From positions 3,973-67,972 of the forward strand of contig JAEYXS010000055.1 in NCBI GenBank assembly GCA_023431185.1: a DNA stretch of 64,000 bases, given 5' to 3'. Source of the stretch: Verrucomicrobiota bacterium (GTDB taxonomy: Bacteria; Verrucomicrobiota; Verrucomicrobiia; Limisphaerales; JAEYXS01). A model generated the notes under the pieces. That model searched no databases and was not told the origin of the DNA. It saw nothing but the letters and a program-made list of their open reading frames with translations. This document shows positions 50,335-63,289 of the stretch, in pieces. The position numbers and the translations under genes are program-made. Position 1 is the stretch's first letter; each line of letters starts with the position of its first letter.

Positions 50335-50392
50335 TGGTGCGCGAGAAAGGACTTGAACCTTCACCCCTTACGGGACCAGATCCTAAGTCTGG
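50335..50392 (-). pseudogene. 3' part of a split tRNA-Leu(UAG) gene (tRNA positions 27-84 including CCA)
   Basis: The minus-strand sequence is CCAGA-CTTAGGA-TCTGG-tcccgtaaggggt-GAAGG-TTCAAGT-CCTTT-CTCGCGC-ACCA. No matching D-arm or 5' acceptor strand lies adjacent. Confidence 0.85.
50380..50392. repeat. 13-bp direct repeat ATCCTAAGTCTGG (left att core)
   Basis: It is identical to 57494-57506 and corresponds to the anticodon stem-loop of the split tRNA. Confidence 0.85.
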
Positions 50393-50470
50393 TAGTTGCT
50401 GCACTGAGAGACTTTTTTGTGCGTTGGTAGAGAGCAACTTAGATTTTTCACGTTCTTATAGGCATGTGCA

Positions 50471-50491
50471 TGTGCCACTTTTTGTGCCAGT
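50471..50491 (+). promoter_or_regulatory. Double heptamer TGTGCCAC-TTTTT-GTGCCAGT (candidate integrase arm-type/operator site, left)
   Basis: An identical 21-mer lies at 57350-57370. This copy sits 78 nt from the core and 8 nt before the int ATG. Confidence 0.55.
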
Positions 50492-50499
50492 GTTAGCCT

Positions 50500-51711
50500 A
50501 TGAAAACGAATGTAACCCGCTGCTGTCCAGAATCTTCCAATCCAGAGAAGAGTATCGAGAAAACGGTCAAGAATCGCTTCTTCAAGGTCATTGATGGACG
50601 TAAACAACCTGTCCGGGGTCTCTGGGTCAGGAACGGACGTTACTACGCGAGGTTAGCTGTTGAAGACGAGAGGACTGGCAAAAAGTCAGTTAAACGTATC
50701 CTGATTGAAGACGCGACAACCGTGCCACAAGCAGTCGAGGCACTGAAGGTGCTCCAAGTAAAGCGTAAGGCCAAGGATCTGCCCGTCACCAAGCGTACCC
50801 CAAAGTTCAACGAATACGTGGACAGTTACCTGAATTTTTACAAAACGGTCAAAGACGCAAAACGTGAGTCCACTATGGAGACCGAAAGCGGCTTGCTCAA
50901 GCAGTGGGTGAAACATTTAGGCGAGACTCGCCTGAGTCAAATCAACAAGCGCATGATTCTCGCCTTCATCGAGGAAAGGCAAGGGGCTGGGTGGAGCGGG
51001 CGAACCGTAAATCTTAGCATGACTGTGCTAAGGAACGTCTTGAAGAAAGCAATTGATGAGGAATGGCTCAAGCGCTTGCCCACGGAGAACATGCGCCCCT
51101 TGAAATGGACCCCTCGTAAGCGCAGCTTACTATCAGCAAATGAGATGGAGCGCCTGTGTGAAAAAGCCCTCACCACTTCAAAGAACGGACAGCAGTTGGC
51201 AGACTACCTCAGGCTCATGTCTTACTGTGGTTCAAGGATGACGGAGACCTTGCATCTCAAATGGTCTGATGTGGCATGGGAAACCCGTCAAATCACCATT
51301 GGATCAGATGGACTCACCAAGAACAACAAGGCAAGGCGCGTCGATTTTAACGCCAAACTGGAAGCACACCTCAAGGACATGTTCTCACGGAAAGCCCCCG
51401 ACTCTGATTGGCTTTTCCCCTCCCCTTTACGCGGCGACCAAGACAGGGCTGCGAAGTCTTTCAGGGAAAGTCTGCTGCTCGCCAGGAAAGCCGCTAAACT
51501 GCCCCATGTTGGTTTCCATGACTGTCGCCATTTGTTCATCAGTTACTGCGTCATGTCAGGCATCGATTTTATGACGATTGCTCGCTGGGTCGGCCATCAA
51601 GACGGAGGGGTTCTGATTGGAAAGGTTTACGGACATCTCAGCAACGAACATACCCAGCTTCAAGCACAGCGGGTTGTTTTTGGGCCATCAAGCATCTTAG
51701 CAGCGGCCTAG
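50500..51711 (+). CDS. int: Tyrosine-type site-specific integrase
   Basis: Catalytic-region motifs are GSRMTETLHLKWSDV, GFHDCRHLFIS and GKVYGHLSNEH. An N-terminal SAM-like domain is present. It is a paralog of the 57614-58825 gene. Confidence 0.9.
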   Translation: MKTNVTRCCPESSNPEKSIEKTVKNRFFKVIDGRKQPVRGLWVRNGRYYARLAVEDERTGKKSVKRILIEDATTVPQAVEALKVLQVKRKAKDLPVTKRTPKFNEYVDSYLNFYKTVKDAKRESTMETESGLLKQWVKHLGETRLSQINKRMILAFIEERQGAGWSGRTVNLSMTVLRNVLKKAIDEEWLKRLPTENMRPLKWTPRKRSLLSANEMERLCEKALTTSKNGQQLADYLRLMSYCGSRMTETLHLKWSDVAWETRQITIGSDGLTKNNKARRVDFNAKLEAHLKDMFSRKAPDSDWLFPSPLRGDQDRAAKSFRESLLLARKAAKLPHVGFHDCRHLFISYCVMSGIDFMTIARWVGHQDGGVLIGKVYGHLSNEHTQLQAQRVVFGPSSILAAA

Positions 51712-51718
51712 CTTAGCC

Positions 51719-52225
51719 TTACGCAATAAGTGCCATCAGAAAACGCCTTACCAATGGCCGTTTTGTTTTTGGGGTAGTAAATCTCTCGTCTAGCTTGGCA
51801 GCCAGAGATTCAAGGAACTCTTGCTCACCAGCGTAGTGTTTGAGCCATTTCAGCACTTTCTTTCCATTTTCGTCATGCGCTTCTGGCACTACTTCGTAAG
51901 CCATCCCTGAAATCGGCCCCCTCTTGAAAATTGGCTTTCCGTAAAAGAACAAAAAAGCGTAGACCTCCTTTAGCACCAAATCTTCAATCATTCGATGACG
52001 TTTTCTAGTGCCGGCGCCTCTCACAGGCATGGGAAAACGATCTAAAATATTGTCAACTTCATGTTTCTTGCTGCGATGCTGCTTACAAAGTACGCAACGG
52101 TATCGCAGCATAGTTTTGGTGTTGCTATGCCTTGGGCCTTTCGACTCCATTCTTCCTCCACAGACCTCGCAGCGCACACCCCCTCCCTTATTGCAAACTG
52201 AGCGTAGACTCAATTTTAAAATCAT
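51719..52225 (-). CDS. Hypothetical protein with an N-terminal Zn-ribbon (CxxC...CxxC)
   Basis: The Zn-ribbon region is CEVCGGRMESKGPRHSNTKTMLRYRCVLCKQH. The remainder was not recognised. Confidence 0.5.
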   Translation of the reverse strand: MILKLSLRSVCNKGGGVRCEVCGGRMESKGPRHSNTKTMLRYRCVLCKQHRSKKHEVDNILDRFPMPVRGAGTRKRHRMIEDLVLKEVYAFLFFYGKPIFKRGPISGMAYEVVPEAHDENGKKVLKWLKHYAGEQEFLESLAAKLDERFTTPKTKRPLVRRFLMALIA

Positions 52226-52375
52226 TTTAAAGGGGAATTACCTCAAAAAGGCCCGACTTGCCGAACTTAGCCATAAAAACTGAAATTTTTCACGGTTCCT
52301 TTATGTGTGCGGGTAAACCACCTGCAACTGCACTTCTCTACTGAGAGATGCAGGCTCTAAACCAGAAGCATTGCT

Positions 52376-52603
52376 ATGAACAGGTTTTGCAGTCTCGCCA
52401 AGTTCCAGAAGGAAATTGGAGTCAGTTACCAGACCTTGTGGCGTTGGCGCCAACGGGGATGGCTGAAAACAATCACCATTGCTGGCAACCCATACGTCAC
52501 GAACGAAGCCATTCAGGAGTTTCTTAGGCGTGCCGAAGCTGGGGACTTCAAAATCCCCACCACTTACGCTGCCAAGACCCAACTCAAGCAAGAGGAACCC
52601 TAA
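52376..52603 (+). CDS. Excisionase-like helix-turn-helix protein (HTH_17/AlpA-like)
   Basis: Contains IGVSYQTLWRWRQRGWLKTITIAGNPYV. It is a paralog of 60780-61013 (LGISRTTLWRWRKYGWIVTVQIAGRHYI). Confidence 0.7.
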   Translation: MNRFCSLAKFQKEIGVSYQTLWRWRQRGWLKTITIAGNPYVTNEAIQEFLRRAEAGDFKIPTTYAAKTQLKQEEP

Positions 52604-52613
52604 AACTAACAAC

Positions 52614-53171
52614 ATGAACGCAAAGATCAAAAGTCCGTTGAAATGGCCGACTGAAAAAATCAGGACGCCAGTTGATAAAATCCGTATGGCTCGGTTCCAC
52701 AATTGGAGCTCAGAGGAAGCTCAATCCAAGCTTGAGGCTGAGCTTCGCAAAGCAAAAGCCACTGACGTAACCATCACATACAATGCCAGCTCTCGCTCCA
52801 AGGACGAAGGGGTTGCAGTTTTCTTCAACCACAAAGGACGCCCCGTAGTGCTTGCCTGTGACAAATGGAAAACCATCGCAGAAAACTTATGGGCGATTGC
52901 TTGCCACATCCACGCGCTTCGTGGTCAAGAACGGTGGGGTGTTGGCACCATGGAAAGCGCTCTCGCAGGTCATCTGCTTTTGCCCCAATCCTCAGAAGGA
53001 AAGTCTTGTTGGGAGATTCTTGGAGTGGAGCAAGGGGCTGAAGTTGATCAGATCCGCTCAGCTTATCGCAATAAGGCAAAGGAATGCCACCCTGACAGGG
53101 GTGGTTCTGACGAGTCTATGATGCTGCTCAATCAGGCTCTTGAACAGGCCATCGAGAATTCAAAAGGCTAG
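52614..53171 (+). CDS. J-domain protein (C-terminal DnaJ-like domain with HPD)
   Basis: The J domain is CWEILGVEQGAEVDQIRSAYRNKAKECHPDRGGSDESMMLLNQALEQA. The N-terminal domain resembles prophage-borne J-domain proteins. Confidence 0.7.
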   Translation: MNAKIKSPLKWPTEKIRTPVDKIRMARFHNWSSEEAQSKLEAELRKAKATDVTITYNASSRSKDEGVAVFFNHKGRPVVLACDKWKTIAENLWAIACHIHALRGQERWGVGTMESALAGHLLLPQSSEGKSCWEILGVEQGAEVDQIRSAYRNKAKECHPDRGGSDESMMLLNQALEQAIENSKG

Positions 53172-53174
53172 CAA

Positions 53175-54278
53175 GTGCAGCAGGGGGAGGGCCTGTACGA
53201 ACAACGCTTCCCCCTGCTTTTCTCAACTCCTCAACCTAATAGTATCTCTACTAATATCTTCATGCCTCTTCCAGATCACCTGAACTGGTCCAATCTCGCT
53301 GAGCTTACAAGCAACCAGTTTTGCCTGTCAGACGAGCAAAGGTTCTTTTTGTTGAACACAACGAATCGCATCCGCCTGTTCCCGCATAGGTTTAATCGCA
53401 ACCAAGGCTACCCTGAGACAGCAGGACTTATCCTGATGTCTGACTGGAATCACAGGCAGAGGTTTTGCCTCTGCTCAAATCGCAAATCCATCTGCAAGCT
53501 GTGGAAGTTTTGCCATTACTGCCGCCACCTCTACCGCATGAGGCTCATGCATACCTTTCTGCCTCACTTCAGCGCTGGCAACTGGTACTTTCTTACCATC
53601 AGCTTTGATGGCCAACTGAGCTTTGAATCGCCATTATTGGACGATCCGACAAATTACTGGGCCGCTTGTGGTCATGCGATCCATGAAATGGTTGAAAGCC
53701 GCCAAGTTATAGGGGCAATCAAGGTCGAGGAACTGAGCATCTGCTCTTTCAACCCCTTAACTGTCTTGCCTCATTGCCATATTCTCCTGTTCACCGAGCA
53801 AATCAGTCCATCTTTCATCGATGAGACCAATGCTTTGGTTGAGTCATATCGCCCTGTTGAGTTCAATCCAGACCTTGAGACTTGGGAGGTATTTCAAGAC
53901 GGGCGAATCCATCATCCTGTCACGACGCGATTGGCCCGCCTTGAGGCTCAGGAGAATCTAGCCAAAACCATCTCATATCTGATTAAGCCCATCGACGTTG
54001 TAACGCCCTACAGGGCCAGCTTGGAAGCCTGCGAGGGTGCCCCTGAAACAGTCAGGCAACTGAACCAAAACGTCTGCGAATTCTTTCTCAGTTACAGCGA
54101 GACCACGCACAGTCGTCGCCAACTCCAATACTTTGGCACCTTAGACGCCCGCCGCCGCTCAAGGTTTGTTGGGGTGAGTCCAGCATGTCGCGAGGCACCA
54201 GCCAACAGGTCGCTTGTGAGGGAGTTGCTCAGGAGTTATCCGACGAATGTTTTGTTGGAAGATGAGGCAAATGAGTAG
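53175..54278 (+). CDS. rep: Rolling-circle replication initiator, pC194/pUB110-like (Rep_1-type HUH)
   Basis: A Zn-finger-like CKLWKFCHYCRH (compare FCKSRLCPMCNWRR). Motif 1 is YFLTISF, motif 2 is LPHCHILLF (HUH) and motif 3 is AKTISYLIKP (Tyr). The start (GTG 53175 or ATG 53262) is uncertain. Confidence 0.6.
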   Translation: MQQGEGLYEQRFPLLFSTPQPNSISTNIFMPLPDHLNWSNLAELTSNQFCLSDEQRFFLLNTTNRIRLFPHRFNRNQGYPETAGLILMSDWNHRQRFCLCSNRKSICKLWKFCHYCRHLYRMRLMHTFLPHFSAGNWYFLTISFDGQLSFESPLLDDPTNYWAACGHAIHEMVESRQVIGAIKVEELSICSFNPLTVLPHCHILLFTEQISPSFIDETNALVESYRPVEFNPDLETWEVFQDGRIHHPVTTRLARLEAQENLAKTISYLIKPIDVVTPYRASLEACEGAPETVRQLNQNVCEFFLSYSETTHSRRQLQYFGTLDARRRSRFVGVSPACREAPANRSLVRELLRSYPTNVLLEDEANE

Positions 54279-54603
54279 CTTGAGAGCCGCCCGCTACTTG
54301 TCACTCAATCCATGCTTCCAATGACAGGAAAAAATCATGGCGAAAAGCAGGTGCTTCTTGCTACGTTCTAACCTGCAAAGCTTATGTAAACAAAAACGTC
54401 GAACAATTTAGCGTAGCAAAGGCTACGGTCTCGCTAAGAAACCGCGAATTTCATTTGTCCAGAGACCAGCCCAGGTACGCGCCTAATCGGGCGCGGCTTG
54501 GTATCTTCCTCTGGACAGGCGCTTCGCGGTGCCTTTAGCGGGGATGCGCCAGGTTCGCGCTCCTGCTTTTTGACCGCATTGCACGCTAAGAAAGGCTGTA
54601 ATC

Positions 54604-56463
54604 TTGAATATCAAAAGAATCATCGTCGCTACAGTCGCAGGCGTTGTCAGTCTGCCAGCGATGGCAGCTTCAGTAAGCGGTTACGGACAATCAGTGTTCT
54701 TATCGCCTGTTTCAGCCAATAGCTATGGTATTCCAGTCGTGATGAATTTCACCACTTCTGATGGACGCACAGATGTCTCTCCTCTTCGCCAGACAATTTC
54801 TGGCGGTTACCTTTACAGTGGTGAACTTAGGCCGAAAATAGGCGGAGGTGGAATCTACGAAACAGACTTCATAACAGTTAAAGTGAGCGATGGATCTACT
54901 GCTGAATATGGCAGCCTAGAGATCAGCCTTCCAGTCACTGACTCAGATGCCAATGGACTACCAGATTTCGCGCAGCAAGACATGTCATGCAACATATCCA
55001 CAACAGGTGTAGCAAAAACCGATTTCAGTTCAGTCCCCCCCGCACAATCGCGAAACGTGCTAATCACGATGAATCGAAATAGCGGTTCCAAATCTGGCAC
55101 TTACACGGTTAAAGACCAAGCGACCGGTGGCAGCACCATTAATTTCTCAGGAAGTTGGGAGATCAACACCTTCTCAGGAAGCATGGCTTACGACCGAGGA
55201 AGCCAAAACCTCGCCTCTTTTGCTATCCAAAGATTTAACTCCAGAAGTGGTACGGTCAGGACTTTTACGGGGGCAACGGTGTTCACGGTGGACAGTGAAA
55301 ACCAACTGACTTTCCCTCAGTTCCATGTCACAGATACCAGTGACGGTTCTGTTTACACAATCGGCGGGACCATCCTGACTCGCTCCGGCAACAAGTATTC
55401 CGGTTCAATTGCTTTCACAGATGGCGATCTTAGCACGACGTGGAACGACTACACCAGTTGGCAAGTTGAGATTGCCGACGCCAGCGACATTGATGGTGAT
55501 GGGGTGCCTGATTTGTCAGACACAGCCTACGCAAATGCCCCATCTTCAAACAAAGTGCTCTCACTCGATGGTAGCAATAGCTATGTGAAGGTGGCTAATT
55601 CCACCTCATTGCATTCGGCAACAGAGTTGACCTTGGAAGCTTGGGTTTATCCCGAGAGCGCTCCCGCCAATCAAAGCCAGTATTTCATCAGCAAGGGAGA
55701 TGGAGGATCGGTCACCTCTGATCGCAGCTACCATATCAACTGGAAACCTGTCACCACAGCCTCACCGGGCTTTAACGTCGAAATGTTCTTCAATCAAAAC
55801 AACTATGCCTATGTCATTGTACCAGCAGCAGAGAGAAAATGGGTCCACATTGCGCTGACGTTCAACAGTTCAGACGGAGTGATGAAGTTTTACACAAACG
55901 GAGTTCTGGCAGCCCAACAAACGAAAGATTCTTCCAACGGGCCTCTTCTAGGGCAAACCATTCGCCAGAGCAGCAAGGATTTGGTTTTTGGCAACCTCTT
56001 GGCTCCGCCAGCATCAGGCAAGTATGCCAAAGGGTATCTAGATGAAGTGCGAATTTGGGGGGTGTCCAAAGACAAAGATGGAATCCTGCTCACGATGCAA
56101 AGCAGACTTTCCGGCAATGAACCAAATCTTTTAGCTTACTGGAACTTTGATGCGGGAATCCTCACCGACGTTTCTGGAAATGGCCACGAAGGATTGTCAT
56201 ACGGAAATGCCGTAATCAATCTGATTTCCGGTAACAACGAGGTCCACGCTGCGCGTATCAAATCCGTCATTCGCAATGCAAACGGCACGGCACTACTGTC
56301 AATCAACCTAGCGACCAATCTGCCACATACAGTCTTGGCATCCCCTAACCTTCAAGACTGGACAATGGTAACGAACATCGTAGCCACTAGCTCGCCTTTT
56401 GAAGTCACAGACCCATACTCAACCAACAGTCCGGTTAGATTCTACCAACTGACATCGCCCTGA
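54604..56463 (+). CDS. Secreted LamG (concanavalin A-like) domain protein with Asp-rich Ca-binding-like motifs and C-terminal FYR-type module
   Basis: A TTG start gives the signal MNIKRIIVATVAGVVSLPAMAAS. Other motifs are DSDANGLPDFAQ, DIDGDGVPDLSD and LamG_3-like LTLEAWVYPES...WVHIALTFNSSDGVMKFYTNG. The protein ends VRFYQLTSP. Confidence 0.7.
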   Translation: MNIKRIIVATVAGVVSLPAMAASVSGYGQSVFLSPVSANSYGIPVVMNFTTSDGRTDVSPLRQTISGGYLYSGELRPKIGGGGIYETDFITVKVSDGSTAEYGSLEISLPVTDSDANGLPDFAQQDMSCNISTTGVAKTDFSSVPPAQSRNVLITMNRNSGSKSGTYTVKDQATGGSTINFSGSWEINTFSGSMAYDRGSQNLASFAIQRFNSRSGTVRTFTGATVFTVDSENQLTFPQFHVTDTSDGSVYTIGGTILTRSGNKYSGSIAFTDGDLSTTWNDYTSWQVEIADASDIDGDGVPDLSDTAYANAPSSNKVLSLDGSNSYVKVANSTSLHSATELTLEAWVYPESAPANQSQYFISKGDGGSVTSDRSYHINWKPVTTASPGFNVEMFFNQNNYAYVIVPAAERKWVHIALTFNSSDGVMKFYTNGVLAAQQTKDSSNGPLLGQTIRQSSKDLVFGNLLAPPASGKYAKGYLDEVRIWGVSKDKDGILLTMQSRLSGNEPNLLAYWNFDAGILTDVSGNGHEGLSYGNAVINLISGNNEVHAARIKSVIRNANGTALLSINLATNLPHTVLASPNLQDWTMVTNIVATSSPFEVTDPYSTNSPVRFYQLTSP

Positions 56464-56598
56464 AAGACGTGATTTTGCATACAAGTGAGAGTCTCATCCG
56501 CAAAACCGACCCGCGAAACACAAGCAGTTTCAAGTAAGGCATTTGTGCAGCAAAACCCATTTGACGGTTCTGAGTGGCAGGTATTACAGCCGTTGCGC

Positions 56599-57015
56599 TC
56601 AATTCAGTGCACGAGACATATTCCAACTTGATGGGCATGGGTAGATGAGACGCCGAGGCATGATTCCAATCCTCCCAACAGGCCAGATAAAGGCTGCGCG
56701 AAAACAGCATCCATAACGAGCCGCGGAAACCTCATCCGCTTTTACTGGCACACCGTATTCCTTGGTGATTTGCATGATTTTCTCAGCCACTAGTTTGGAT
56801 AGTCCATCATTTGCGATACTTGGCAATTCAGCCATCTGAGATTCGCTCATTTGTGGTGAAAACGCGATGCCACCTTTAAGCCTCACCTCCCAAAGATGAT
56901 GATACTTGCACTTCTTAACACTTATCACCCGCAATCCATTCCGCTGGAACCCCAAGCTGAGCCAATTGTGGAAAAAGTAACGACTGGGAAGAAAATACAG
57001 CAAACGTTCAGGCAT
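56599..57015 (-). CDS. Hypothetical protein
   Basis: A 138-aa ORF inside E1. The family was not recognised. Confidence 0.4.
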   Translation of the reverse strand: MPERLLYFLPSRYFFHNWLSLGFQRNGLRVISVKKCKYHHLWEVRLKGGIAFSPQMSESQMAELPSIANDGLSKLVAEKIMQITKEYGVPVKADEVSAARYGCCFRAAFIWPVGRIGIMPRRLIYPCPSSWNMSRALN

Positions 57016-57156
57016 GGATTAGCCTACAGTTCCAGTTAAGCCATGCACAGCGACGATGGAACATGAACTCCAAGCCTTAACGAAAAAACTCAACTCTTAG
57101 GTCAACAAGACGTTTGCTTGACTGAGGGCACGTCAGCCTTGAATCTGGCAAAGGTT

Positions 57157-57240
57157 GGGCATGTGGCGGAATGGCAGACGCGCTGGACTTAGGATCCAGT
57201 GGAGAAATCCGTGCAGGTTCAAGTCCTGTCGTGCCCACCA
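57157..57240 (+). tRNA. tRNA-Leu (anticodon UAG), intact, CCA-encoded, carried inside E1
   Basis: An 84-nt cloverleaf. The acceptor is GGGCATG/CGTGCCC (one G-U pair), the D stem is GCG/CGC, the anticodon arm is CTGGA-CTTAGGA-TCCAG, there is a long variable arm, the T arm is GCAGG-TTCAAGT-CCTGT, and it ends ACCA. Confidence 0.85.
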
Positions 57241-57349
57241 TCTCACTTTCTTTCCACCAATGAGCACGGGCAGCAGTTTGCTGCCTAAACCAGCCAGAAC
57301 GCGTTTCTGATGCTAAGAATGCCATCCTGAGCGAGCTTCCTTGGCTATG

Positions 57350-57370
57350 TGTGCCACTTTTTGTGCCAGT
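57350..57370 (+). promoter_or_regulatory. Double heptamer TGTGCCAC-TTTTT-GTGCCAGT (right-arm copy)
   Basis: It is identical to 50471-50491 and lies 123 nt inside the right att core. Confidence 0.55.
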
Positions 57371-57493
57371 TATGACATCAAGGTGATTCCTCCGTTCCTA
57401 GGCTTACCAGACAACACTTCACACAATGTTTACAGGCCAATGCTCGAAAGCTTATGGAAGCATTTGGAAGGGTTTGAAAATGGCAAAAACGAA

Positions 57494-57506
57494 ATCCTAA
57501 GTCTGG
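57494..57506. repeat. 13-bp direct repeat ATCCTAAGTCTGG (right att core)
   Basis: It is identical to 50380-50392. Confidence 0.85.
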
Positions 57507-57532
57507 CGTGTCTGCCATTTCACCACTCGCGC
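57494..57532 (-). pseudogene. 5' part of the split tRNA-Leu(UAG) gene (tRNA positions 1-39)
   Basis: The minus-strand sequence is GCGCGAG-TG-GTG-AAATGGCAGA-CAC-G-CCAGA-CTTAGGA-T. The acceptor strand is perfectly complementary to CTCGCGC at 50339-50345. Confidence 0.85.
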
Positions 57533-57583
57533 AACCTTGATAATCAAGCACTTAGGAGTGTCTGACTGTGATTTTCTTGCAGT

Positions 57584-57604
57584 TGTGACACTGATTGTGA
57601 CACT
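57584..57604 (+). promoter_or_regulatory. Double heptamer TGTGACAC-TGATT-GTGACACT upstream of the second integrase
   Basis: The architecture matches the 50471-50491 site: 77 nt from the core and 9 nt before the int ATG. Confidence 0.5.
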
Positions 57605-57613
57605 TTTGCGTTC

Positions 57614-58825
57614 ATGAAACCCGCTGCAACCGCCAGCCCAGGTTTGCAACCCGATGGCACAACTGTCGAATCACAGGGCGGAGCCTACCAAAGTGTGCTG
57701 GACCGACGCAAGCGGCCGATACGCGGACTTTGCTGCCGCAACGGGCGCTTCTACGCCCGCCTCAGCATCGAAGACCCCGCCACCGGGCGCAAGGCCGTCC
57801 GGCGCGTGCCGCTGGCAGCCGAAACCGTGGCCTAGGCCACCGCGGAACTGCGGACCCTGCAAACCCGGCGTCAGGACCAGGCCCTCCCCGCCCTGCGCCG
57901 CGCCCCCAAGTTCAACGAGTACGCGGACCAGTATCTCGCCTATTTTGAAACCGTGAAAGGGGCCAAACGGAAGCGCACGATCGAAACGGAAACCGGGCAC
58001 CTCAACCAGTGGAAAGCCCATCTGGGCGAAACCCGGCTCAACCAGATCAGCCGGGCCATGATCAACGATTTCATCACCAAACGGAAAGCCCCCAAGATTG
58101 GCAAAGACAACAAGGAAAAGACCATCAGCAACCGGACCATCAACCTCGCCATCGTCTGCCTCCGCAACGTGCTGAAAAAGGCCCTGGAGGAAGGCTGGAT
58201 CAAGGCGCTGCCCACCGAGAACATGCGACCGCTGAAGTACACCGCCCGGAAGCGGCAGCTGTTCACGCTGGCCGACATGGAAAAGATCTGCGGGCAGGCG
58301 CTGGAGACCTCCAAGAACGGGCAGGAGTTCGCCGACTATCTCCGTTTGATGGCGTATTGCGGCTCCCGCATGACGGAGACGCTCGCCCTGAAATGGGCGG
58401 ATGTGGACTGGCAGCAGAAGCAGTTGACGATCGGTGCCGACGGGCAGAGCAAGAACCACCAGGCGCGGGTGGTGGACTTCAACCCCAAACTCGAAGCGCA
58501 CTTACGGGAGATGAAGCAGCGGAAGGCGCCGGATACGGCCTGGCTTTTTCCGTCACCGCAGCGCGGCAACAAGGACCGTCCCAGCAAGACCTTCCGGGAA
58601 ACTTTGCTGATGGCCCGGAAGGCGGCCGGCCTGGAAGGCTTCGGTTTTCATGACTGCCGGCACTTCTTCATCTCGATGTGCGTCATGTCCGGGATCGATT
58701 TCATGACCATCGCCCGCTGGGTGGGCCATCAGGACGGGGGAATTCTGATCGGCAAGGTCTATGGACACCTGTCCAACGAACACGCGCAACGGCAAGCACA
58801 GCGGATCAAATTTGGTCCGACTTGA
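57614..58825 (+). pseudogene. Tyrosine integrase paralog interrupted by one in-frame TAG at 57833-57835
   Basis: ORFs 57614-57835 and 57953-58825 are in the same frame, and the translation is collinear with Int1 across the stop (AETVA*ATAELRTLQ against TTVPQAVEALKVLQ). Catalytic motifs are retained downstream. Confidence 0.8.
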
Positions 58826-61343: not shown

Positions 61344-61559
61344 ATGAAAAAAACGAACCGCATCAACGTCCCGCAACTGATCAATGAGTTGTCTGCCGAG
61401 AACGCGGAAGCCGCTGCGGCGCTCGTACTGAGCCTTGTGGCAGGCCTCGTTCGAAAACACCCGGAGGTTGCAAAGCCAATGCTGACGCAACTGATTGGGC
61501 AACTGACTATGCTGCAACATTCGCCAGAGAAAACAGACTTGGGGGCCAAGTATGATTAG
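61344..61559 (+). CDS. Hypothetical small protein
   Basis: A 71-aa ORF tightly packed between neighbouring genes. Confidence 0.4.
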   Translation: MKKTNRINVPQLINELSAENAEAAAALVLSLVAGLVRKHPEVAKPMLTQLIGQLTMLQHSPEKTDLGAKYD

Positions 61560-62355
61560 CCGCCATCAACATCTTGAGGCCAGATTTGTTCAAGACAAGC
61601 ACGGCATCTGGCGGCGTCGTTTCCAGAAGCGCGAACTGGCTGACACCATCGATAGTTTCTTTGCTCGTACTCGGTTTGCGCAACAACGAAGTTTGTATGG
61701 CACAGCCTGCCTTATATGGCAAGGTGCCCGTGACAAACGGGGTTACGGTGTCCTAAGTGTCGCCGGAAAGCGACTCCTGGCGCATCGGGTCGCCTTCGTG
61801 ATGGCGTATGGAAAAATCCCCAAGCCATTGGTCCGTCACTTATGTGATAACACCTCTTGCGTAAACCCTTTACATTTGGCTGCCGGGACAGCGCTTGACA
61901 ATCACAACGACGCAAAAAAAGCTAATCGCACGGCAAAGGGTGAAAGCAGCGGCCGGTATAAACATCCAGAGGCTTACCCGGTTGGAGATGCGTGTCCGAA
62001 CAGCAAGTTGACCTCGATAGCAGTCATGGAAATCCATCGGCTCTACCGGACCCGCTTGAAAGACACCGTGGAACTTAGCATTGATTACGGCGTTTCCGTC
62101 ACCACCATCAACTCGGCCCTGCACGGCCGGAGTTGGAACATTGAGTTTGAGGCTGCCAGGCAAATTTATCCCAGTATGGAGATGCACCACCGCAAAAATC
62201 TCGGCAAAAAGCGCTGGAAATTTGACGCGGCTAAGGCTGCGCAGATACGCGCCAAAAAAGAAGCTGGGATGTCCGTGAACTCAATAGCCAACGAATTTGT
62301 ACTGAGTGTCTCCTCGATTTATAAGGCTCTCCGCATGTATCCCAAAGACAAATGA
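61552..62355 (+). CDS. HNH endonuclease (HNH_3 type) with C-terminal HTH-like modules
   Basis: Contains CLIWQGARDKRGYGVLSVAGKRLLAHRVAFVMAYG...HLCDNTSCVNPLHLAAGTALDNHND. Confidence 0.8.
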   Translation: MISRHQHLEARFVQDKHGIWRRRFQKRELADTIDSFFARTRFAQQRSLYGTACLIWQGARDKRGYGVLSVAGKRLLAHRVAFVMAYGKIPKPLVRHLCDNTSCVNPLHLAAGTALDNHNDAKKANRTAKGESSGRYKHPEAYPVGDACPNSKLTSIAVMEIHRLYRTRLKDTVELSIDYGVSVTTINSALHGRSWNIEFEAARQIYPSMEMHHRKNLGKKRWKFDAAKAAQIRAKKEAGMSVNSIANEFVLSVSSIYKALRMYPKDK

Positions 62356-62416: not shown

Positions 62417-63289
62417 TCACACCGGCTGGAGCAATCCAGCCGGTCTTTCGTTTTCGAGTTCCCCAAACCTCCCGAGGAAATTAGGTTCGGTGTAGATCCA
62501 CACCTGACCATCAGGAACGATGTTCCTCTTGATGGTGAAGATGTGGGGGATACCGAAGACCTTCGACTCGGTAAGCGCCGGCAAACCCTGTTGGAACAGG
62601 GCCTGGGACATGTCGCCACCGACCTCGGTGCGATCGAAGTCCAGGAACGCCAGTGCGGTGATACGGTTCATCAGCACGACGCCGTTGTTCAGGTTCTGCT
62701 TCTGCAGCGGTTCCAGAATACGACGGTAGGTCGTGCGGGTGATCACGTTGTTCACGACGAAGTTCTGCTGCACGCCAGACAGACCGACGCCGTTGGACGG
62801 ACCCACCACTTCCTCGCACAAGCCGACGAAGTTTGCGTCTTCTTCGGTCTCGATGCTGTTGAGGGAGTTGTTGGTCGTCACCTGACGCAGGTCATGCTTG
62901 TAGGTGCGCAGCTCGTTGATGTTCTTCGTCCAGTTCGGGGTGGTGATCGGGTAGAACACCAGTTCGTATTTGTCGCCAAAGTAGAACTGGGTGTCCGCCG
63001 CACCGCCGAACGTGATGGTCGCCGCGCCCTTCGACTTGGCTTCCATGTCGCAGATCATCAACGGCAGGTCGTGTTCGAGCACGCGAGTGAGCATGTCGTC
63101 CGTGATCGTCTCGGGCGGCAGGATGCGACGGCAGAAGCCGTTTTCCCGCAACTCGCGACGGATCATGTCCGTGCCTTTGCTTGAGGCGTACTTGTTGAGG
63201 CCATCGCCGCCCTTGTCCAGCTCGGCCAGAATCGTCGAATTGATCTCGGAGATATCTTCTACCTCCGGAGCAGTATTCACAGGAGTCAT
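62417..63289 (-). CDS. Putative phage major capsid protein
   Basis: A 290-aa ORF. The pattern MIRRELRENGFCRRILPP...NINELRTYKHDLRQV...EPNFLGRF resembles capsid proteins as I recall them. It is preceded by a small structural-type gene and the tail of a coiled-coil gene, a head-module layout. This was not verified by any search. Confidence 0.5.
   Translation of the reverse strand: MTPVNTAPEVEDISEINSTILAELDKGGDGLNKYASSKGTDMIRRELRENGFCRRILPPETITDDMLTRVLEHDLPLMICDMEAKSKGAATITFGGAADTQFYFGDKYELVFYPITTPNWTKNINELRTYKHDLRQVTTNNSLNSIETEEDANFVGLCEEVVGPSNGVGLSGVQQNFVVNNVITRTTYRRILEPLQKQNLNNGVVLMNRITALAFLDFDRTEVGGDMSQALFQQGLPALTESKVFGIPHIFTIKRNIVPDGQVWIYTEPNFLGRFGELENERPAGLLQPV
62421..62456 (+). terminator. 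Rho-independent terminator for the HNH operon (overlaps the 3' end of the convergent capsid ORF)
   Basis: A 10-bp stem accggctgga/tccagccggt with loop gcaa, followed by CTTTCGTTTTCG. Confidence 0.6.

Follow-up and report, generated by a model that had tools for sequence, protein, structure and literature searches.

A non-phage element of Verrucomicrobiota that splits a tRNA-Leu(UAG) gene and carries an intact cognate tRNA: a candidate case of tRNA-dependent integration

A small integrated element of a Verrucomicrobiota bacterium, termed E1, interrupts a tRNA-Leu(UAG) gene, rebuilds no tRNA at either junction, and carries an intact tRNA-Leu(UAG) of different sequence. We interpret this arrangement as probable tRNA-dependent integration (with a probability of roughly 70%), in which E1 destroys a tRNA-Leu(UAG) gene whose function is replaced by the carried cognate tRNA. 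Such a strategy was demonstrated for actinobacteriophages, whose viable lysogens require the cognate phage tRNA (tRNA-dependent lysogeny; Guerrero-Bustamante and Hatfull, mBio 2024, PMC10865867), and the authors of that work asked how widespread it is, including beyond actinobacteriophages.

Results

A tRNA-Leu(UAG) gene is split by a 7.1-kb element

The stretch of DNA that was analyzed (64,000 nt, hereafter the window) derives from scaffold_121 (127,790 bp, ENA ERZ28594742), of which 73 kb are visible. Its relevant features are listed in Table 1. E1 extends from about 50380 to 57493 (7,114 bp) and is flanked by a 13-bp direct repeat, ATCCTAAGTCTGG, which has no further exact copies in the window besides those at 50380 and 57494. 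This core runs from the 5' strand of the anticodon stem through the anticodon loop to 1 nt past it, and the crossover probably occurs within this core, in the anticodon loop. When the two gene halves are rejoined in silico, ARAGORN calls an 84-nt tRNA-Leu(tag), which agrees with the initial annotation, where E1 was described as splitting a tRNA-Leu(UAG). At the junctions themselves, neither ARAGORN nor Rfam detects a tRNA, the carried gene being the sole match. The GC content of E1 is about 0.49, versus about 0.59 for the host DNA on its left. At the far left of the window, positions 1-2000 have a GC content of 0.42-0.44, compared with about 0.59 in the next 48 kb, and may be another foreign segment.

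Table 1 Features of E1, of the split tRNA gene, and of the neighboring element E2 (positions in the window).
Feature	Position	Strand	Basis or remark
Split tRNA-Leu(UAG), 3' part (nt 27-84), attL side, continuous with host DNA leftward	50335..50392	-	Sequence, BLAST, ARAGORN reconstruction
Left core copy, 13 bp, ATCCTAAGTCTGG	50380..50392		Exact repeat
E1 P' arm: promoter-like remnant (TCTAAGTTGCT...), then 5'-half slot	50393..50470		112-nt ungapped alignment with standard elements
Putative arm-type integrase-binding repeat TGTGCCACTTTTTGTGCCAGT, P' side	50471..50491	+	Exact second copy at 57350
int1, intact tyrosine integrase, 403 aa	50500..51711	+	Pfam Phage_integrase, E = 6e-21; phrog_1 integrase
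168-aa protein, weak zinc-ribbon match	51719..52225	-	Below Pfam curated cut-off
Excisionase-like helix-turn-helix protein, 75 aa	52376..52603	+	phrog_66 excisionase, E = 2.5e-6
E1 cargo block	52614..56463	+	Pfam, PHROGs, gene calls
DnaJ-domain protein (cargo)	52614-53171	+	Pfam/PHROGs scans
367-aa protein, function unassigned (cargo)	53175-54278	+	Almost without homologs
LamG-domain protein (cargo)	54604-56463	+	Pfam/PHROGs scans
138-aa ORF upstream of the carried tRNA, function unassigned	56599..57015	-	Without family match (Pfam, PHROGs); not a remnant of an integrase gene
Carried intact tRNA-Leu(UAG), 84 nt, encoded CCA end, discriminator A	57157..57240	+	ARAGORN and Rfam
Arm-type repeat TGTGCCACTTTTTGTGCCAGT, P side	57350..57370	+	144 nt left of attR core
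Right core copy, 13 bp, ATCCTAAGTCTGG	57494..57506		First 13 bp of 57494..57532
Split tRNA-Leu(UAG), 5' part (nt 1-39), probably supplied by E2	57494..57532	-	Family-type flank and arm site adjoin
E2 P' arm: promoter-like flank CCTAAGTGCTTGATTATCAAGGTT (tRNA strand) and arm-type repeat	57533..57613
E2 arm-type repeat TGTGACACTGATTGTGACACT	57584-57604		Core distance same as in E1
int2, paralog of int1 (~60% identical), probable pseudogene	57614..58825	+	Translation, Pfam, tblastn, tree

The 21-nt repeat TGTGCCACTTTTTGTGCCAGT is exact in both ends of E1, where 0.01 copies would be expected by chance, and a motif of this kind occupies the matching position in related elements. On the P side, the spacing from arm to core is 144 nt in E1, 142 nt in L202, and 143-144 nt in L015 and L041.

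An artificial origin of this arrangement was considered, since the source is a metagenome scaffold in which tRNA-like repeats could have been joined into a chimera, and since the Logan contigs assembled independently from the same sample are interrupted inside the carried tRNA, at 57173-57201. Against this explanation, those contigs contain both att junctions with 100% identity (one junction per contig), and the interruption is limited to a 29-nt stretch that is common in unrelated bacteria; a shared stretch of this kind makes a short-k assembly branch, which accounts for the break. Furthermore, the two acceptor strands of the carried tRNA are perfectly complementary although they lie on different Logan contigs, both of which contain the E1-specific arm site TGTGCCACTTTTTGTGCCAGT. 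For these two reasons the join across the break is treated as genuine on sequence grounds, and the data, as far as they go, exclude an assembly artifact, which appears highly improbable. A 29-30-mer of the anticodon arm of the carried tRNA must be present in one or more other organisms of the sample.

E1 carries an intact tRNA-Leu(UAG)

ARAGORN detects a single tRNA in the window, a tRNA-Leu with anticodon tag. Its 3' end is 253 nt from the right boundary of E1 and it lies on the strand opposite to the split gene, confirming the intact 84-nt gene that had been placed some 250 nt inside the right end. The gene also withstands covariance-model scoring, with 58.5 bits against the Rfam tRNA model (gathering score of 29, E = 4.6e-10). 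The acceptor stem (GGGCATG/CGTGCCC in the carried tRNA versus GCGCGAG/CTCGCGC in the split gene), the D arm, and the variable arm differ between the two genes, as had been proposed, and the anticodon and T stems are dissimilar too. The carried tRNA nevertheless keeps 25 of 25 consensus pairs; relative to the host type, both partners have changed in 8 of these pairs. These intact stems and compensated pairs, along with the encoded CCA end, indicate that it is not a decaying copy, and from its sequence it looks functional; it would presumably be expressed and charged.

The carried tRNA is 72% identical to the split gene and 75-79% identical to six Verrucomicrobiota tRNA-Leu(UAG) genes that adjoin standard elements of the integrase family described below, these six sharing 82-99% identity among themselves. 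A 23-mer of the carried tRNA has a sole match in viral contigs, in a 107-kb phage that is unrelated and contains a tRNA array. In metagenome contigs, a 22-mer yields at least 120 matches from many bacteria, none of them E1-like, and the best of those listed reaches only 74 of the 84 nt. The 22-mer GCGCTGGACTTAGGATCCAGTG of the carried tRNA is widespread in metagenomes.

The gene content of E1 is limited

E1 holds about seven genes, without a lytic programme, and no virion genes (capsid, tail, terminase, or lysis) were matched in it by Pfam or PHROGs. Next to the integrase, the excisionase-like 75-aa protein is a family-wide component, with tblastn matches in 29 related loci. Homologs of the 367-aa cargo protein led to one other context, a different element at tRNA-Asp, and no relatives of int1 were found in viral contigs. 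A palindromic intergenic element of ~165 nt (54405-54572) is 81% identical to a segment at the end of the related contig L207 (7445-7608), with unrelated flanks. Its arms read CCGCGAA..GTCCAGAG..CGCGCC and GGCGCG..CTCTGGAC..CTTCGCGG; it has no Rfam match and may be an origin or oriT, a terminator, or an RNA.

Related integrases are associated with replacement of the tRNA 5' half

A search for homologs of int1 retrieved 2,396 at E ≤ 1e-20, the named ones belonging to Verrucomicrobiota; many family members are 57-67% identical to int1. We then surveyed 69 loci from reference genomes. In 59 of them, int has an intact tRNA 50-105 nt upstream, in divergent orientation (Leu-UAA in 26, Leu-CAG in 12, Leu-CAA in 10, Leu-UAG in 6, Phe in 3, and Met in 2), and in 9 loci an exact repeat of tRNA nt 1-40, 34-40 nt long, is located 4.7-9.7 kb downstream of int. 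The flank just upstream of the int-side tRNA is conserved whatever the tRNA (roughly cgTAAGTgcTTGnTAATcAaGGTT, then +1) and the flanks of the distal tRNA copies are unrelated. The conserved int-side flank and the distal 5' repeats indicate that these elements supply the 5' half of the tRNA plus a promoter-like flank of their own. The motif cgTAAGTgcTTGnTAATcAaGGTT looks like an extended -10 promoter, through which the element would control the expression of the rebuilt tRNA. Among the related loci surveyed, none of the tRNA-rebuilding elements carries a second cognate tRNA.

The att sites of the family share one layout: core, ~90 nt, arm repeat, and int at one end, and, at the opposite end, an arm repeat preceding the core by ~143 nt. 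L202/L203 likewise have the distal repeat of tRNA nt 1-40 (34-40 nt), their arm repeats preceding that core by 142 nt, and L015 and L041 are alike. E1 has the integrase homology and the att layout of the family, with identical spacings, and int1 falls inside the family tree. One family feature, the presence of the tRNA 5' half (nt 1 to ~40) in attP, is found in E2 and is absent from E1 and four sister elements.

Some loci of the survey depart from the common pattern. L006 (1030-1069), L034 (9878-9919), and L066 (9937-9967) have only a tRNA 5' half beside int, as is seen at int2, with no recognizable arm site leftward, and may represent further arrays, either tandem or disrupted. L068 (6109-6407) has a tRNA-Leu(CAG) on the + strand with an N-terminal integrase fragment just upstream on the opposite strand, 5 kb downstream of another integrase fragment and with tRNA-Gly fragments nearby, and looks like a site of repeated integration. 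L022 was considered as a second non-regenerating element and rejected, as the apparent interruption is a scaffold gap (NN) in a normal tRNA.

The split gene was probably rebuilt by an older element

The 5' half of the split gene adjoins int2, an arm repeat at E1-like spacing, and a family-type flank, and on this basis the 5' half and its promoter-like flank appear to belong to an older element, E2. The gene broken by E1 would then be a hybrid that E2 had already rebuilt. The term "split host gene" used in the initial annotation consequently holds for the 3' part, which is continuous with host DNA, but not for the 5' half and flank, attributable to E2. From its layout, E2 appears to be a standard 5'-half-replacing member of the family. 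In the 15.7 kb rightward of int2, no displaced host 5' half was detected; the far end of E2 has either been lost or lies at a greater distance.

The int2 gene has a single in-frame TAG at 57833-57835, at a position occupied by Gln in int1, and is otherwise intact. Unless served in trans by int1, E2 is probably immobilized. The segment rightward of int2 (62417-63289 and 61552-62355) contains a gene for an HNH endonuclease and a protein that weakly matches a major head protein (phrog_2522, E = 4e-4); further rightward, beyond the window, lie genes for a PD-(D/E)XK nuclease, a SymE toxin, and a DNA ligase. E2 may represent either a prophage in decay or a larger island.

E1 belongs to a clade without the tRNA 5' half

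The closest homologs of int1, P0002 and P0003, are 66-67% identical to it and, with the members of their cluster, are encoded on contigs L198, L199-L201, L206, and L207. In a neighbor-joining tree, int1 and the integrases of L198, L199, L206, and L207 form one clade, nested among those of standard tRNA-Leu(UAG) elements (int2, L001, L202, L003, and L204). On the sister contigs, int is preceded by an arm repeat of the form TGTGCCAC-N5-TGTGCCAC, a 12-bp core, ATCCTAAGTCTG, that keeps 12 of the 13 bp of the E1 core, and the 3' half only of a tRNA-Leu(UAG). These contigs end before the right ends of the elements, and ARAGORN detects no tRNA on them; a second core is likewise absent from the sister-cluster contigs (≤8 kb).

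From arm site to core, E1-like and standard elements can be aligned over 112 nt, essentially without gaps. The E1-like elements keep a recognizable promoter-like block (CCTAAATGCTTGGTAATCAG in L199), whereas the 26-nt slot of the 5' half is unrelated sequence throughout the clade, and in the P' arm of E1 it has the same length as in relatives. We infer that the slot decayed in place under relaxed selection with its length unchanged, probably held by the geometry of the integrase complex. The connection between lacking the 5' half and carrying a tRNA rests on one complete element, E1, together with this decay argument.

The left flanks of the sister contigs comprise an ATP synthase operon, a PQQ-repeat gene, and a pterin-binding gene, and the disrupted 3' halves are of the TCCAG and TCCGG types in the sisters and of the TCTGG type in the window. 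The differing flanks and 3'-half types indicate that the disrupted genes are host genes of different hosts. Long contigs with homologs of the sisters' primase contain other element types, at tRNA-Ala and tRNA-Arg, and a scan of viral contigs with the arm-site pattern and the primase returned nothing close.

The sister elements also bear on the origin of the carried tRNA. Its 3' half (55 nt) is a 100% match to the half disrupted by L199 and is 96% identical to the halves disrupted by L198 and L206, while its 5' flank, which ends in CAAAGGTT, resembles the element-borne flanks of the family and not native host flanks. Taken together, these two observations suggest that an element-rebuilt tRNA gene of an earlier host lineage was captured and became the carried gene. 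A leftover of an inverted tRNA-int module, as in L068, was considered instead and rejected, as an integrase profile search of 56301-57160 was empty. We also rejected the idea that the carried tRNA is immune to its own element through its anticodon stem (CTGGA versus CCAGA, 2 core mismatches), as the sisters hit that stem type. Because the sisters integrated into TCCAG-type tRNAs, the integrases of the clade can probably target tRNAs of the carried type, which would have no protection.

Discussion

In the mechanism that we propose, int1 would catalyze recombination between the 13-bp core of attP and the anticodon loop of tRNA-Leu(UAG). The attP of E1 is without the tRNA 5' half used by its relatives, so that integration would destroy the target, in this case a gene previously rebuilt by the resident E2, and the carried tRNA, independently transcribed, would take over CUA decoding. 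CUA occurs at 2.4 per 1000 codons in the host genes of the window, and thus the host needs a CUA reader. No other tRNA is present in the visible 73 kb of the scaffold, and we infer that the host has no other tRNA-Leu(UAG). Compensation by the carried isoacceptor, as put forward in the initial annotation, is therefore the best-supported reading, given the phage precedent and the comparison with relatives; in this reading the carried gene is presumably expressed, whereas a second tRNA-Leu(UAG) gene in the host would make compensation needless.

The carried gene may instead mainly serve E1 itself, as a supply for rare codons or as a defense against tRNA-cleaving systems, in a host that has another tRNA-Leu(UAG). 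CUA is used at 8.2 per 1000 codons in the E1 genes, 3.4 times the frequency in the host genes, and both codon supply and counter-defense have been discussed for phage tRNAs (PMC10865867). An element with so few genes and no lytic programme fits this role poorly, however, and the carried anticodon is exactly that of the destroyed gene. In addition, the clade-wide decay of the 5' half would be strongly counter-selected without a replacement, and the tRNA-rebuilding elements do not carry a second cognate tRNA. On balance, we regard a role confined mainly to the element as unlikely.

It is also conceivable that the carried tRNA is a passive, unexpressed relic of a rearrangement, perhaps a secondary landing site for related elements. 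The match of its 3' half to the halves disrupted by L199, L198, and L206 and its family-like 5' flank do point to capture, its anticodon arm is of a type that the clade can target, as the sisters lie in TCCAG-type tRNAs, and a promoter scan of its flanks recognized neither a sigma-70 promoter nor a terminator. Capture is nevertheless compatible with a present function, and a neutral copy would be expected to show damage, given that the 5'-half slot of E1 has decayed, whereas the carried tRNA scores high and has every stem intact, 8 of its differences from the host type being fully compensated. A relic thus seems distinctly unlikely, and tRNA-dependent integration remains the preferred reading.

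A benefit of carrying a whole tRNA may be sought in the acceptor stem. Facing the 3' strand of the host (CTCGCGC), a carried-type 5' half (GGGCATG) would mispair at 3 of 7 acceptor positions, so that a tRNA-rebuilding element could presumably not have entered this host; a whole tRNA may free E1 from matching the host acceptor stem. More tentatively, the observations can be joined into one history. The family replaces the tRNA 5' half and promoter and would thereby control expression; one clade would have captured a whole rebuilt tRNA-Leu(UAG), lost the 5' half from attP, and become dependent on its own tRNA, and could then move between lineages with different tRNA-Leu(UAG) genes. Relay insertions would follow, each newcomer breaking the rebuilt or carried tRNA of its predecessor, and the only CUA reader of the host would become element-borne. 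We consider this sequence of events possible, though somewhat short of an even chance.

The closest known counterparts are actinobacteriophages such as Fionnbharth (K4), LeBron (L), and Gaia (X, tRNA-Leu-CAA), which have cores of 8-17 bp and do not rebuild the tRNA, while close relatives with 43-52-bp cores do (PMC10865867). E1 shares with them a tyrosine integrase, arm-type sites, a short core in a tRNA gene, attL and attR without a rebuilt tRNA, and a carried tRNA of the same anticodon, and in both cases there are tRNA-rebuilding relatives with long cores (Boilgate and Omega there; L001, L202, and E2 here). Compared with the traits of tRNA-dependent lysogeny, E1 has an integrase and an attB in a tRNA gene (13-bp repeat, int1, arm sites), a core within ~8-17 bp without a rebuilt tRNA (13 bp; ARAGORN, Rfam), and a tRNA matching in isotype and anticodon (tRNA-Leu(tag), 57157-57240), but it lacks the capsid, tail, terminase, and lysis matches of a temperate phage. 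The actinobacteriophages are temperate, their attB overlaps the 3' half, and their requirement for the phage tRNA has been proven genetically; in contrast, E1 is a 7.1-kb Verrucomicrobiota element without virion genes whose relatives rebuild the 5' half, and it is known from sequence alone. By analogy, E1 would work like the phage tRNA-dependent system, but it is not a phage. Prophage Lj965 of Lactobacillus johnsonii, which reportedly rebuilds no tRNA at its junction and encodes the cognate tRNA, is a possible case elsewhere (cited in PMC10865867); as far as that citation describes it, Lj965 resembles E1 in both respects and differs in being a Firmicutes prophage.

Among integrative elements at large, Islander recorded 159 islands with a 5' fragment out of 3,919, and 2,083 with an anticodon-centered site (PMC4383910); replacement of the 5' half is thus a minority but known arrangement. 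The 5'-fragment islands resemble the standard family and E2 in having a displaced 5' fragment and an anticodon-loop site, but they rebuild the tRNA gene, which E1 does not. Neither the Verrucomicrobiota family nor its conserved tRNA flank seems to be described in that work. Classical tRNA islands and phages restore the 3' part and retain the host promoter (Reiter 1989 and Williams 2002, as cited in PMC4383910). As described there, they are like E1 in having a tyrosine integrase, a tRNA-gene site, and int beside attP, and differ in attP content, which is the 3' part in the classical elements, the 5' part with an upstream flank of its own in the Verrucomicrobiota family, and neither in E1. The departure from the usual regeneration that had been noted initially therefore stands insofar as neither junction rebuilds a tRNA, although the strategy was already known and the norm of this family is the 5' half and not the 3' half. 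The non-regenerating strategy itself is not new and has so far been shown only in phages of Actinobacteria; what E1 adds is a variant that is non-phage, acts on the 5' side, and occurs in Verrucomicrobiota.

E1 bears on the question raised in 2024 of whether tRNA dependence exists outside actinobacteriophages. Island finders that rely on a tRNA and its displaced fragment would miss elements of this type, and a genome tRNA census could miscount the carried gene as native. For the family itself, the length-preserving, clade-wide decay of the slot suggests a direction of evolution, from tRNA rebuilding to dependence on a carried tRNA, and points to a benefit, in that such elements would have no need to match the acceptor stem of the host.
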